Below, one piece after another: positions 37,465 through 46,490 of a stretch of 64,000 nucleotides of DNA. Both the position numbers and the translations under genes were made by a program. Below the pieces are notes generated by a model that saw only the letters and a program-made list of their open reading frames with translations, was not told where the DNA came from and did not search any database. The stretch is from NCBI RefSeq assembly GCF_988243305.1, contig NZ_OZ547136.1, one strand, 5' to 3'. The first letter of the stretch is position 1. Each line of letters opens with the position of its first letter.

Positions 37465-37719
37465 ACCATCCACGGCACGTCGGTCGGCGAACTGCTGGCG
37501 TGGATCAAAGAAGATGAAAACCCTCGCAAAGGCGAGATGGTGCTGATTATTGAAGGCCATAAAGCCCAGGATGACGAACTGCCCGCCGATGCGCTGCGTA
37601 CGCTGGCGCTGTTGTAGGCTGAGCTGCCGTTGAAGCAAGCGGCGGCGTTGGCGGCAGAAATCCACGGAGTGAAGAAGAATGCGTTGTATAAGTATGCGCT
37701 GGAACAGCAGGGGGAATAA
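37465..37719 (+). pseudogene. rsmI: 3' fragment of 16S rRNA 2'-O-methyltransferase gene rsmI with an in-frame TAG
   Basis: [83 protein letters not shown] closely matches the C-terminus of E. coli RsmI as I recall it. The N-terminal ~200 codons are absent. Confidence 0.7.
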
Positions 37720-38218
37720 GCCCCTGCTGCCGGTTTTGCCGGGTGGCGCTTGCGCCTTACCCGGTCTGCTCATTGGGACAAGCGTTTAGTTAACGGGCAC
37801 CGCCTCAAACACCAGCGTTTCCAGCGGCTGCAACGTAATCACCGTCGCGTTTTTATACTCAACGGGCACGGTTTTATTGCTGCCGTATACCGCTTTCAGA
37901 CTAAACTGCGCCACGTCTCCTGTCGGTATTTCGAAATCCTTAGCCAAATCCAGATAGTAGGCCTGTGGCTTATCCGATGGGTTGCGCAAACCGAGAATGG
38001 CTTTGTCTTTGCTCCAGGATGCCCAGCCGTACACGGCAAGCGCCGTTGGGTCGCCGCCAATCCAGTGGGTATCAACCAGCACGCTGGCATTTTCCTTCGA
38101 CCATTTTGCAGCCTTCGCCAGCGTATCCCACTTCACCTTGTTCAGCATGGACGGGGTAATATACTGAACCGCCCCGGGAATCCTGGAGACTAAACTTCCT
38201 GAGAAAGAGGTAAACAGG

Positions 38219-38545
38219 ATGACTAAAAATACTCGTTTTTCCCCCGAAGTCCGTCAACGGGCAGTCCGTATGGTTCTGGAAAGTCAGAGCGAATATGACT
38301 CACAATGGGCGACAATTTGTTCCATTGCTCCAAAGATTGGCTGTACGCCGGAGACTCTGCGTGTCTGGGTTCGCCAGCATGAGCGGGATACCGGGGGCGG
38401 TGATGGAGGGCTCACCACCGCTGAACGTCAGCGTCTGAAAGAGCTGGAACGTGAAAATCGTGAACTGCGCCGCAGTAACGATATCCTTCGCCAGGCTTCC
38501 GCTTATTTTGCGAAGGCGGAGTTCGACCGCCTCTGGAAAAAATGA
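38219..38545 (+). CDS. IS629 OrfA (HTH transposase subunit)
   Basis: 108-aa ORF within IS629 copy 1; leucine-zipper-like C-terminus. Confidence 0.9.
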
Positions 38546-39432
38546 TGCCACTGCTGGATAAGCTGCGTGAGCAGTACGGGGTCGGACCGCTATGCAGCGA
38601 ACTGCATATTGCCCCGTCAACGTATTACCACTGTCAGCAACAGCGACATCATCCGGATAAACGCAGTGCCCGTGCGCAGCGCGATGACTGGCTGAAGAAA
38701 GAGATACAGCGCGTATACGATGAAAATCACAAGGTATACGGTGTGCGTAAAGTCTGGCGTCAGTTGTTACGGGAAGGTATCAGAGTGGCCAGATGCACTG
38801 TGGCACGTCTCATGGCGGTTATGGGACTTGCCGGTGTTCTCCGGGGTAAAAAGGTCCGTACGACCATCAGCCGGAAAGCCGTTGCCGCAGGCGACCGCGT
38901 AAACCGTCAGTTCGTGGCAGAACGACCTGACCAGCTGTGGGTGGCTGATTTTACTTACGTCAGCACATGGCGGGGCTTCGTCTATGTGGCGTTCATCATT
39001 GATGTGTTTGCCGGATACATCGTGGGGTGGCGGGTCTCATCGTCCATGGAAACGACATTCGTGCTGGATGCACTGGAGCAGGCGTTATGGGCCCGTCGAC
39101 CGTCCGGCACGGTCCATCACAGTGATAAAGGTTCTCAGTATGTATCGCTGGCCTACACACAGCGGCTTAAGGAAGCCGGATTACTGGCATCAACAGGAAG
39201 TACAGGCGACTCGTATGACAACGCGATGGCGGAGAGCATCAATGGTCTTTACAAAGCGGAGGTAATACACCGTAAGAGCTGGAAAAACCGTGCAGAAGTG
39301 GAACTGGCCACACTCACGTGGGTGGACTGGTATAACAATCGACGATTGCTGGAAAGGCTGGGCCATACTCCTCCGGCAGAAGCAGAAAAAGCTTATTATG
39401 CTTCCATCGGAAACGATGATCTGGCAGCCTGA
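38542..39432 (+). CDS. IS629 OrfB (DDE integrase-core transposase)
   Basis: 296-aa ORF overlapping the orfA stop at GAAAAAATGATG (candidate -1 frameshift region); DDE motif context HSDKGSQY...DNAMAES. Confidence 0.9.
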
Positions 39433-41001
39433 GTTCACAGATAAAACACTCTCCAGGAAACCCGGGGCGGTTCATACAGCTCCTGCAGCTGGGTGCCGGT
39501 CGCGAAGTAGCTCCAGACCTGATCGGCAAAGTCGCTGTCCGTTTGCACCTTCTCTAACCCGTAATAGGCATTCTCGGCGCTGACTATCCCGTGGTACATC
39601 AGCGAGTTCAGCGGGAACAGAGGGCCTTTACGGACAATGGAGCGGTACGTCTCGGCATCGCGGTAGGTCATCCACTGCTGCACCGGCGTACCGGAACCAT
39701 ACAGGTTGATGTCATCTCCCTGACGCCAGATAGAATCAGCGTAGAACAGCCAGGACGGGCTGGCGTCGGTGCCGGTGGTCAGGTTGATAAACAGATTCGG
39801 GGTTGCGCTGCGCATATTGTGCAGCAGGGCGATTGATGCATCGAAATCTGAGGCGAACGAGCTGCCTTTGATATGCGAACTGGCGTTACCCATCCCGTCG
39901 AGTTTAAACGAGGTGATGTGCTCGTTTTTGATAAGCTTGATGATCCGCTCATTGAAGTTTTTAAAGTAGTTCGCTCCCGACAGCGCCAGTTTGCCGTCCA
40001 CGGTTTCGAACCCATACTCTTTTGCATGCGAAACGCGAACGTCGCGCGGTTTGTTGTAGCCACCCCACGGTGAAAGCCATAGCCCAACGGAGCTGTGCAG
40101 GCTGTCGGCTTTCTCCCGTACTTTGCTAAAACCGTTTCTGAATGCCGTGCCAAATAGCCAGCGTCCGGTCAGATCGTCCCAGCCATCATCCAGCAGGAAG
40201 GCGTCCAGCGCCACGCCGCGGCCCGTAATGAACTCCTTGTTCCATTCGTCCATACGCCCCAGCACATCCTGTTCAGTGTAGGGAGTGAAAAAGCCGATAT
40301 CCATCCAGCTGTTGTAGTGCAGATAAGGCTTGTATGGGCGTGGACGTACGTCATTAATAAACTGGTTCACGCTGCGGCGCAGCTGGCTGGTTTCCGGGAA
40401 AGTGCCGAACCAGGTAGTAAAGCTGACCGGCGCCTCTGGCTGAATCGGCGTTTTCAGCTCTACGTTGAGATTGGTGGTGGCTTCATAGGCGTAGGTATTC
40501 ACGATCGGTTTATCCGGCAGGATAAAGAACGAGTCCGCAACGATCGGAGAGCTATTGATTGCGCCGTCTACGTAAGGGGCCTGAGACTGTTTTTGGGTCG
40601 GGAAGAAGGTGATTTTAGCGACGTCGCGCGGCTGCCCCACGGCGGCAATGGTGTAGCCGATGTTGGCGTATTTTCCCTTCACCAGGTTCAGCTTCACCGT
40701 GACGTTAAAATCCGGGTGCGTAAAGTCGATGACAATCGCGTTATCCTGCTTTTCGACGTGCTTGATTTTGAAATCCGCGGTGTGGATTTTACTCTCATCC
40801 GGCAGCGTCAGAAAGAACAACTCCTGCGGCGTGAGCGGATGGTTAGCCTTGTTGTCCTTCACCACGACCGTTGAGTTTGTATCATCAAACAAGAGGGCAA
40901 TATTGTCGTTATTGAGCGCGTAGTTTGCTGCCGCTGCACCATGAGAAACGCAGAGAGCCAGCAGTGAGAGAGTGAGCACTTTCTTCATCGGGGTAAGATC
41001 C

Positions 41002-44452: not shown

Positions 44453-44460
44453 GACTTACT

Positions 44461-45285
44461 ATGAGTAATACCGACGCTTCAGGTGAGAAGCGAGTGACAG
44501 GCACCAGCGAGCGACGAGAACAGATCATTCAGCGTCTGCGACAGCAAGGGAGTGTGCAGGTTAACGATCTGTCGGCATTGTATGGCGTATCTACTGTGAC
44601 GATCCGCAACGATCTGGCGTTTCTGGAAAAGCAGGGAATCGCTGTGCGTGCCTATGGTGGCGCGTTGATCTGCGATAGCACGACGCCGTCAGTCGAGCCA
44701 TCAGTGGAAGACAAAAGCGCACTGAACACCGCGATGAAACGCAGCGTTGCGAAAGCTGCCGTTGAGTTGATTCAGCCAGGTCATCGGGTGCTCCTCGATT
44801 CCGGGACCACCACTTTTGAGATTGCTCGTCTGATGCGCAAGCACACTGACGTAATTGCGATGACCAACGGTATGAACGTGGCTAATGCGTTGCTGGAAGC
44901 GGAAGGCGTTGAGCTGCTGATGACCGGCGGGCATTTGCGCCGTCAGTCGCAATCTTTTTACGGCGATCAGGCTGAGCAATCGCTGCAAAATTACCACTTC
45001 GATATGCTGTTTCTTGGTGTAGATGCGATCGATCTGGAGCGCGGCGTCAGCACGCATAATGAAGATGAAGCCCGTTTAAACCGCCGGATGTGCGAAGTTG
45101 CGGAACGGATCATCGTGGTCACCGATTCCAGTAAGTTCAATCGTTCCAGTTTACATAAGATCATTGATACTCAACGTATCGACATGATCATTGTTGATGA
45201 AGGCATTCCTGCGGATAGTCTGGAAGGCTTGCGAAAGGCTGGGGTTGAAGTGATTCTGGTCGGGGAGCTCGCGTCTTCGCTGTGA
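44461..45285 (+). CDS. agaR: DeoR-family repressor of N-acetylgalactosamine genes
   Basis: 274-aa [62 protein letters not shown]... recognised as AgaR. Confidence 0.85.
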
Positions 45286-45347
45286 TTCACTATGCCCGAT
45301 AAACAAGCGTTATCGGGCATAATACAACTTAATGTATGAAGAGAATA

Positions 45348-46490
45348 TCAGGCCACCGGTGCCGGGTTAAACACTGCCAGTTGGTTATGCAATCCCCATT
45401 GATCCGAGAGGGTTTTCTTCTTCCCGCTGGCGACGTCGAGAATAAAGTGGAACAACTTCCAGCCCACCTCTTCAATGGTTTCTTCGCCGGTAGCGATAGT
45501 GCCTGCGTTAATATCCATTAAATCAAACCAGTGGTTCGCCAGCCCGGTGCGGGTCGCCATTTTAATGACGGGTACCTCCATCAGGCCGTACGGCGTACCA
45601 CGGCCGGTCGTAAACACTTGCACGGTGATACCCGAAGCCACCTGTTGCGTGCCACAGACAAAATCTCTGGCTGGCGTCGCGGCGTAAATTAATTCGCGTT
45701 TAGTCGGGTGTTGACCGGGCGACAGCACTTCAACAATTGCGGTTTTACCCGATTTAGCAATGGAGCCGAGTGCTTTCTTTACCACGTTGGCGAGGCCGCC
45801 CTTTTAGTTGCCCGGCGAAGGGTTGGCGCTGCGGTCGGTTTTGCCCATATCGGGATAGTTATCGTATCAGGCCATCTCTTCGAGCAGACGCCTGCCCACT
45901 TCTTCATTGATGGCGCGTGGCGTTAACAGATGAATGGCGTCGCGTACTTCAGTGACTTCGGAGAACATCACCGTTGCGCCGCAGCGCACCAGCAGGTCAG
46001 AGTCGTAGCCGACAGCGGGGTTAGTGGTAACGCCGGAGAACGCGTCGCTGCCACCGCACTGCATGCCCACCACCATCACTTCGCCACCGAAGTTTGGGTT
46101 CAGCGCAATATTATGGATGGTGCGAATTGGCACCACGGCGGCCGGTACATTAATCGCTACGCCACAGCCGTAGAGGTGGTTCAAGTCGACCACGCCGTCG
46201 ATGCTCAGGTATTTCGGCAGCAGGTCGCGTTCGATAATTTTAACCACGTAGTCCTCAACGTCTGCCATGCAGTGCACGCTGGTGGTAATACCCAACAGGT
46301 TTTTGGTGCCCACGCTGCCGTCGGCGTTGCGGTAACCTTCAAAGGTGTAATCTTCCTGCGGCTGCTGCGGCTCCGGCACTTTGGTCGCCCGAGGCAGGGT
46401 GTTAAGCGGCGGCGCTTTCGGTAGCGTGACCGTGGATTCGTCGATCCAGCTGCCTTTGGCGACATCGCGTACCGTGTAACCGATAGCGAA
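45348..46490 (-). pseudogene. garD: galactarate dehydratase gene, decayed (5' truncation, internal deletion, stop/frameshift)
   Basis: ORFs 45348..45785 and 45867..46598 carry GarD segments (...GSWIDES...[27 protein letters not shown]...NFGGEVMV|[13 protein letters not shown]...LLEEM* and ...[10 protein letters not shown]...[11 protein letters not shown]). The segment between GGEVMV and VGMQCGG is missing and the N-terminus is unrelated. Confidence 0.8.

Follow-up and report, generated by a model that had tools for sequence, protein, structure and literature searches.

We consider here a block of genes at positions 37372-46454 of a 64,000-nucleotide stretch of DNA (contig NZ_OZ547136.1 of assembly GCF_988243305.1, called the window below). 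The block resembles a broken copy of the gar-aga-rsmI region of the E. coli chromosome, and quite probably it represents an old, decaying cargo of the serX-type island family that includes PAI-CFT073-serX, mostly of foreign origin and with one E. coli tract inside it. The analysis uses a listing of the open reading frames (ORFs), domain searches and an alignment to the gar-aga-rsmI region of E. coli K-12. These bear out the gene order and strands listed by an earlier reading of the bare sequence (the original prediction), and the alignment also confirms its statement that the relative order and orientations match those of K-12.

Reading from the left, the block begins with an internal piece of an IS66-family transposase gene, the relic of an insertion sequence (IS) (37372-37457, + strand, 86 bp, similar to ISEc8 TnpC). 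It is followed by the last 87 codons of rsmI (rsmI', 37458-37719, +), in which an in-frame TAG at 37615-37617 stands where the protein alignment has a glutamine codon in K-12. Convergent with rsmI' is the gene of a glycosidase-like protein of the Ast/YacT 'enterotoxin' family, which lies on the - strand in two parts, a 3' part at 37786-38164 and a 5' part with the signal peptide at 39475-40988. Two intact genes follow on the same strand, one for a MalY/PatB-family C-S lyase that depends on pyridoxal phosphate (41002-42177; TIGR04350, 363.8 bits against a cutoff of 340) and one for a MalX-type EIICB protein of the phosphotransferase system (PTS) (42189-43760; TIGR02004, 722.7 bits, above the cutoff). 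An ORF at 43874-44212 (-) then joins KbaZ residues 1-23 to KbaY residues ~205-284. Its 'kbaY part (43874-44131) is of a foreign type and corresponds to the C-terminal end of Pfam F_bP_aldolase, while its kbaZ' part (44143-44212, 23 codons) is of the E. coli type in the K-12 alignment. Beyond the divergent agaR-kbaZ promoter region (44213-44460, with CTTTC-type repeats and 97-100% identity to K-12) lies an intact agaR paralogue (44461-45285, +), whose 274-aa product matches NF040755 AgaR with 463 bits and agrees with K-12 AgaR in 268 of 269 residues, plus a 5-residue tail. The last member is a garD pseudogene (45339-46454, -), which the Prokaryotic Genome Annotation Pipeline (PGAP) labels 'UxaA family hydrolase, frameshifted; internal stop; incomplete'. 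Its first ~246 nt are missing, 207 bp have been lost in frame from its interior, and the frame is broken at ~45790-45860.

The rsmI fragment with its TAG, the lyase and PTS genes, the kbaZ'-'kbaY fusion, agaR and the garD pseudogene had all been described in this way by the original prediction, which had also recognized that both ends of the block are truncated genes (the rsmI 3' fragment on the left, garD without its start on the right). Two of its points need revision. The glycosidase-like gene is indeed present on the - strand, but it is not a single ORF, being split by an IS3-family element at 38165-39474. The junction with the neighbouring defence operon, said to be without an IS, has the IS66 transposase piece directly abutting rsmI'.

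To find the source of the block, one genome per species was scanned with the 629-aa product of the uninterrupted glycosidase gene, followed by BLASTN. The segment 37458-44131 is collinear with Kluyvera genomosp. 3 YDC799 at 92.6-95.2% DNA identity (rsmI' 92.6%, the 5' part of the glycosidase gene 94.6%, malY 95.2%, malX 94.8%, 'kbaY 92.6%), and identity to Enterobacter species is 82-88%. K-12 gives 77-85%, in rsmI' (85%) and 'kbaY (77%) only, and has no counterpart of glycosidase-malY-malX at that place. The divergence of the rsmI fragment from E. coli, which the original prediction had taken as a sign of foreign origin, is thus real (85% to K-12 vs 92.6% to Kluyvera genomosp. 3).

The chromosomal maps of the relatives explain the gene content. 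In Enterobacter sp. MGH 24 the order is kbaZ-agaVWEFA-agaS-kbaY-malX-malY-glycosidase, convergent with rsmI, and beyond it lpoA-yraN-diaA; in E. asburiae the same array is without malXY and is preceded on its left by garD-agaR. As in the block, rsmI converges on the glycosidase gene, which is followed by malY, malX and kbaY in one orientation. From these Enterobacter and Kluyvera maps we take glycosidase-malY-malX to be the native occupants of the kbaY-rsmI interval, not extra insertions; in E. coli the same interval holds agaBCDI and the yra fimbrial genes instead. The block shares with the Enterobacter and Kluyvera genomosp. 3 loci the order and orientation of every surviving gene, together with a conserved palindrome described below. 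It differs from them in being truncated at both ends, in the deletion of ~8 kb from kbaZ to kbaY, in having agaR and its flanks of the E. coli type, and in lying within a mobile island rather than beside lpoA. By DNA identity, the nearest sampled relative is Kluyvera genomosp. 3. Because other Kluyvera species have the glycosidase gene in a different context, the donor name 'Kluyvera' is to be read as 'relative of strain YDC799'. A search of plasmids for a vehicle returned only mis-filed chromosomes or unrelated aga loci.

The right part of the block has a different character. Sliding identity in 100-nt windows against the core loci of K-12, AMA1167 and P4 gives 95-100% to E. coli from 44143 to ~45800, which covers kbaZ', the divergent promoter, agaR, a spacer with a hairpin and the last ~450 nt of garD. 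Further right, in the middle of garD (~45820-46454), the values fall to 72-86% for E. coli and 72-90% for Enterobacter. The alternative of a foreign copy, one of two offered by the original prediction, accordingly stands for ~70% of the block (rsmI' to 'kbaY) and fails for kbaZ', agaR and the garD 3' end. The two genes that it had singled out for comparison part company in the same way, rsmI' being Kluyvera-like and agaR being E. coli-like.

The original prediction had also named the absence of prlF-yhaV together with the truncated ends. The pair is truly absent from the 72-nt agaR-garD spacer, but this is no sign of decay or foreign origin, as the core locus of E. coli P4 has garD and agaR adjacent without the pair. 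P4 also agrees in the end of its 274-aa AgaR and in the terminator hairpin, and an 11-nt indel is the only difference from its spacer and terminator. The missing pair is thus a natural E. coli polymorphism, and because P4 shares the arrangement, the AgaR end and the hairpin, 44143-~45800 can be read as one continuous E. coli-type segment. Taken together, these comparisons indicate that the block is a mosaic of mostly Kluyvera/Enterobacter-like DNA with one E. coli-derived stretch.

The donor of the garD middle was sought separately. This part is ~80-82% identical to both groups. A protein search with the 140-aa GarD fragment gave short fragments only and no close full-length donor, and a metagenome scan gave island copies of both variants of the block plus ordinary garD at <=82%. 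One metagenome contig of 4 kb (OHGW01003730.1) has the island-type garD middle and right flank at 99.7-100%, then a core-type garD 3' end, a spacing of ~1 kb and agaR; this is either a genuine recombinant between island and core or a chimera of the assembly.

A further question is where the mosaic was put together. It may have formed in an Escherichia lineage outside the sample, where Kluyvera-like DNA replaced agaBCDI-yra and part of garD in the core chromosome via flanking homology, and have been captured by the island afterwards. Replacement of this kind around kbaZ-agaR-garD would leave an E. coli-like tract with foreign-like DNA on both sides, which is the pattern seen, and the tract's arrangement without prlF-yhaV does occur in some E. 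coli cores. We nevertheless regard this order of events as unlikely. None of the 5426 complete E. coli genomes in our collection has malX-malY-glycosidase in its core aga locus, all matches to these three genes come with the truncated aldolase pieces that the island copies have, and an extra capture step is needed. Much less likely still is a single foreign donor for the whole block, one that happened to be nearly identical to E. coli around agaR so that no recombination with E. coli took place. The agaR and garD of the best candidate, Kluyvera genomosp. 3, do lie outside the comparison, which leaves some room for such a donor; the stretch is, however, ~78% identical in every sampled genus against 98.6% to E. 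coli, the identity changes in abrupt steps, and spacer and terminator match an E. coli core so closely that only the 11-nt indel sets them apart.

The next question is whether the block is the strain's own locus or a second copy. Leaving the IS aside, ~312 of the 5426 complete genomes have the 10-kb stretch at 100% identity. Another ~190, CFT073, Nissle 1917 and NC101 among them, have a sister version of it (93.4% over the megablast-aligned part). In all, 513 genomes carry the malX-malY-glycosidase block. Matches to agaR are found at 5843 places in 5321 genomes, an excess of ~520 that agrees with the 513 carriers, so the carriers have two agaR copies. Strain AMA1167 has the block at 100% identity and elsewhere keeps an intact core garD-prlF-yhaV-agaR-kbaZ-agaVWEFA-agaS-kbaY-agaBCDI-...-rsmI locus. 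We conclude from these genomes that the block should be seen as a second copy.

The other alternative of the original prediction, by which a large rearrangement brought the strain's own gar-aga-rsmI locus beside the island, where it decayed, fits the likeness to K-12: the end markers are the same, garD, agaR, kbaZ, kbaY and rsmI come in the same order and orientation, and agaR is near-identical, agaR and kbaZ' together reaching 98.6%. Beyond the agaR tract, however, identity to E. coli falls to 77-85% in rsmI', 'kbaY and the middle of garD. K-12 has prlF-yhaV, and at the position of malX-malY-glycosidase it has agaBCDI and the yra fimbrial operon, the block agreeing there with Enterobacter and Kluyvera. 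With the intact core locus of AMA1167 and the two agaR places in carriers added, relocation becomes extremely improbable. A misjoin in the assembly, which the original prediction had allowed for, has practically no probability left, given identical junctions in ~312 independently assembled complete genomes and the sister version in ~190 more.

We turn our attention to the island. Positions 22239-30232 of the window correspond to the integrase-to-Gp2 backbone of PAI-CFT073-serX, a described island, at 97.6% identity over 6.9 kb. ARAGORN finds no tRNA gene in the window; in relatives the integrase adjoins dgcT on the rut-put-efe-phoH-pga side, that is, in the serX neighbourhood. The label 'serX' is given because of the backbone homology and this rut-put-efe-phoH flank. 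PAI-CFT073-serX (also in Nissle 1917 and NC101) shares with the window the backbone, the IS66'-'rsmI junction, the TAG and the glycosidase-malY...agaR-garD' relic. It differs in that it lacks the 7.1-kb defence module of the window (30233-37371), which behaves as an indel between Gp2 and the IS66 relic, and in that it keeps more of kbaZ together with pieces of agaS' and kbaY'. To the right of the block CFT073 has an aryl-polyene-type cluster where the window has IS2 and a deoK-like operon. The defence module itself consists of a primase-fragment pseudogene, a 1656-aa protein with NERD, kinase-like and SF1-helicase parts, and a 478-aa partner without a family match.

Over most of the block the CFT073 version is 97-100% identical to that of the window. 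The two have in common the left junction, the TAG in rsmI' and the right boundary of the E. coli-like tract, and CFT073 also shares the 11-nt spacer insertion relative to P4. Their internal deletions are different. In CFT073 only 81 bp of malX are left, fused to the middle of kbaY; agaS' runs into kbaZ at nt ~290, agaR is broken by a 243-bp deletion, and the garD middle has no deletion. Since junction, TAG and tract boundary are shared yet the deletions are not, one old capture followed by independent decay in the two lineages is what the sequences point to. The kbaY and agaS pieces kept by CFT073 are Kluyvera-like (92.7%), and for this reason the ancestor would have had a full foreign aga cluster together with the E. 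coli-type kbaZ-agaR-garD 3' tract. Within the CFT073 glycosidase gene a stretch of ~1.6 kb (~9000-10640 of the CFT073 locus sequence) is only 86-93% identical to the window, with flanks at 97-100%, which suggests an additional recombination with a third allele.

The history that we propose starts from a contiguous chromosomal segment, estimated at ~17 kb from the Enterobacter gene map, with the organization garD-agaR-kbaZ-agaVWEFA-agaS-kbaY-malX-malY-(Ast/YacT-like glycosidase) and rsmI convergent at the far end. An E. coli-type gar/aga tract without prlF-yhaV would have taken the place of kbaZ-agaR and the garD 3' end through homologous recombination, before the lineages of the window and CFT073 separated. 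A deletion from inside an IS66-family element into rsmI may have produced the left scar, and truncation of garD the right one. Later, both lineages would have suffered deletions across the switch point between foreign and E. coli DNA. In the lineage of the window this would be a fold-back or template-switch deletion from kbaZ codon 24 to kbaY codon ~205, together with the loss of 207 bp of garD, and in the window's strain only, an IS3-family element would then have inactivated the glycosidase gene.

The kbaZ'/'kbaY junction (44126-44168, compared by BLAST in both orientations with K-12) carries a 21-nt perfect inverted duplication (GCACAAAGCGGGCAAAACAAA / TTTGTTTTGCCCGCTTTGTGC) and 11 nt of filler (44132-44142). 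It is the inverted duplication with templated filler that suggests a fold-back or template-switch event at this place. The left border is likewise best read as a deletion scar running from inside an IS into rsmI, because the piece that abuts rsmI' is internal to the IS66 transposase gene. Its peptide is 65% identical to residues 214-239 of ISEc8 TnpC, and PGAP annotates the longer CFT073 counterpart as 'IS66 family transposase, incomplete'. A composite transposon was also looked for at the two flanks and not found: the left flank is an internal IS66 fragment without an IS end, and the right flank is another sequence. To the right of garD' there is a 560-bp multi-copy sequence and then an IS2-like element. 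E. coli genomes each contain several copies of the multi-copy sequence (46455-47013), at 76-94% identity and either unannotated or labelled hypothetical.

Several points weigh against the reading of the block as mostly foreign island cargo with an E. coli tract. The donor is not exact, the best identity being ~95% and the YDC799 assembly having many indels. The comparison of agaR, at ~78% identity, covers genera other than that of the best donor candidate. The argument from an intact core locus rests on the genomes of relatives, the window being 64 kb only. Scans for promoters and terminators perform at chance level and are not used as evidence. Finally, the order of events could differ, with the mosaic made first in an Escherichia chromosome or inside the island.

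The element that splits the glycosidase gene is 1310 bp long (38165-39474, +) and belongs to the IS3 family, with two overlapping ORFs matching Pfam HTH_Tnp_1 and rve, TG...CA ends and TAC duplicated at the target (38162-38164 and 39475-39477). Strain 190693 shows the site without the element. The glycosidase-IS3 junction of the window is absent from the whole set of 5426 complete E. coli genomes, and the insertion is private to the window's strain. IS3-family copies sit at other points in or beside the block in other strains. H2 and H9 were considered as less-decayed intermediates and set aside, since both contain this same block, their IS3 copies lying elsewhere.

Between rsmI' and the glycosidase gene, in the convergent gap, the original prediction had noted a GC-rich palindrome. 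It is present, in an imperfect form (37738-37766), and it is found as well at the orthologous convergent gap of Kluyvera genomosp. 3 YDC799. Its folding energy is not exceptional compared with shuffled controls (z = 0.54). As regards a possible place in a family of repetitive extragenic palindromes (REP), the window has one copy, and 1.3 Mb of Enterobacter-group loci contain the core motif 7 times, in some cases at orthologous sites.

What is the glycosidase-like protein? The gene, disrupted in the window, is an intact gene for a 629-aa exported protein in relatives free of the IS. The protein is 78% identical to YacT of Yersinia frederiksenii over 98% of a 513-aa query. YacT, reported to take part in the killing of insects, shares 54% identity with Ast (PMC6246891). 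The full-length similarity of the 629-aa product of the split gene thus links it to Ast, the heat-stable cytotonic enterotoxin of Aeromonas hydrophila, and to YacT. Searches with the sequence gave no family: there is no Pfam or NCBIfam match even at E = 10 and no sequence match in the PDB, where a profile search found only a non-significant alpha-galactosidase (E = 0.15). An AlphaFold2 (AF2) model was therefore compared with known structures using Foldseek. The model, with a predicted local distance difference test (pLDDT) score of 74.9 and a predicted template modelling (pTM) score of 0.76, matches a GH36 alpha-galactosaminidase (E = 8.5e-18), GH36 alpha-galactosidases and the GH129 enzyme NagBb, an alpha-N-acetylgalactosaminidase, at template modelling (TM) scores of ~0.4-0.5. 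The predicted fold has the beta-sandwich and (beta/alpha)8 barrel of clan GH-D (GH27/31/36/129) together with a DDGW-type motif, and the sequence LDDGWDD is invariant in 19 homologues, so the model places the protein in this clan. The homologue of Dickeya is named 'predicted exported alpha-N-acetylgalactosaminidase' in one source, and in Enterobacter and Kluyvera genomosp. 3 the gene is natively the last of the aga cluster. The Ast/YacT-family protein may therefore be an exported alpha-galactosaminidase rather than a toxin. With respect to Ast and YacT, the gene in the window differs in its interruption by an IS, and modelled fold and genomic context point to the alpha-galactosaminidase/galactosidase type, unlike a classical toxin.

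Of the genes in the window's block, malX, malY and agaR are intact, and the rest of the block is functionless pseudogene debris. Ratios of nonsynonymous to synonymous substitution (dN/dS) against the Enterobacter orthologues are 0.02-0.06, values that mostly reflect evolution in the donor lineage. As a result of the deletion the kbaZ promoter region (44213-44460) now lies ~450 bp upstream of malX-malY-glycosidase, and no terminator is predicted between this promoter and malX, in a scan that is at chance level. With the kbaZ promoter upstream and no predicted terminator, any remaining expression of malX-malY-glycosidase is probably responsive to N-acetylgalactosamine (GalNAc) and galactosamine (GalN) and to AgaR. 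In three other Kluyvera species a homologue of the kbaZ promoter/operator (~100 nt, 73-77%) stands directly upstream of an orphan glycosidase gene, in the orientation that would transcribe it.

A more speculative reading, which we hold to be possible and rather doubtful, is that the relic has been selected as a compact GalNAc/GalN-inducible module, one that frees amino sugars from host glycans for the Aga pathway of its bacterial host. The reason to consider it is that two independent deletions removed the aga genes duplicating those of the host and kept the AgaR-controlled kbaZ promoter, which in both cases is left co-oriented with malY and the exported Ast/YacT-like glycosidase. If this were true, the 'enterotoxin' family Ast/YacT would be an alpha-galactosaminidase of the AgaR regulon. 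Of possible wider interest, as a side observation, is the combination of a GH36-like fold, a native place as last gene of the aga cluster and an AgaR-type promoter for an Ast/YacT protein.

The malX-malY pair can also be compared with malI-malXY of E. coli K-12, which it resembles in having a MalX-type PTS EIICB gene followed by one for a MalY/PatB-type C-S lyase. It differs in its locus, in the lack of an adjacent malI, and in its position between kbaY and the exported glycosidase gene, under or near AgaR-type control. The primers of the classical malX marker of pathogenicity islands (PAI) have no match in the window, and identity with that marker is not claimed.

The block is a known, widely distributed, annotated and mostly dead relic of a described island family. 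Matches to agaR, kbaY, garD and rsmI in serX islands are accordingly not to be read as duplications or rearrangements of core genes. The relic would date from before the split of the CFT073/Nissle-type serX islands from those of sequence type 410 (ST410), to which strains such as AMA1167 presumably belong. It offers a worked example of how a piece of another genus's chromosome can serve as island cargo and later be patched by recombination with the new host. In the literature searched, no paper was found that discusses aga/gar remnants in serX islands.

Other parts of the window show further features of the island. To the left of the backbone, a 1.38-kb AT-rich segment with a 228-aa ORF (20479-21854; ORF at 20998-21684) stands in place of the 8.15-kb pgaABCD-dgcT region that strain 190693 has between phoH and the integrase. 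To the right of the block, a second chromosomal relic is present at ~48818-49044, a pseudogene of the acetolactate-synthase small subunit (annotated by PGAP in the identical sequence of relatives), which adjoins the deoK-type operon of a DeoR regulator, a ribokinase, a FucP-like protein and an epimerase. Near the end of the window, at 60404-63776, there are genes for a LysR regulator (annotated hypT), an aspartate racemase and a C4-dicarboxylate transporter. A hypT-like flank was considered as a sign of a large inversion, and this idea was dropped, because the Shigella SRL island at serX has been described as carrying LysR, aspartate racemase and DcuA (PMC7545054).

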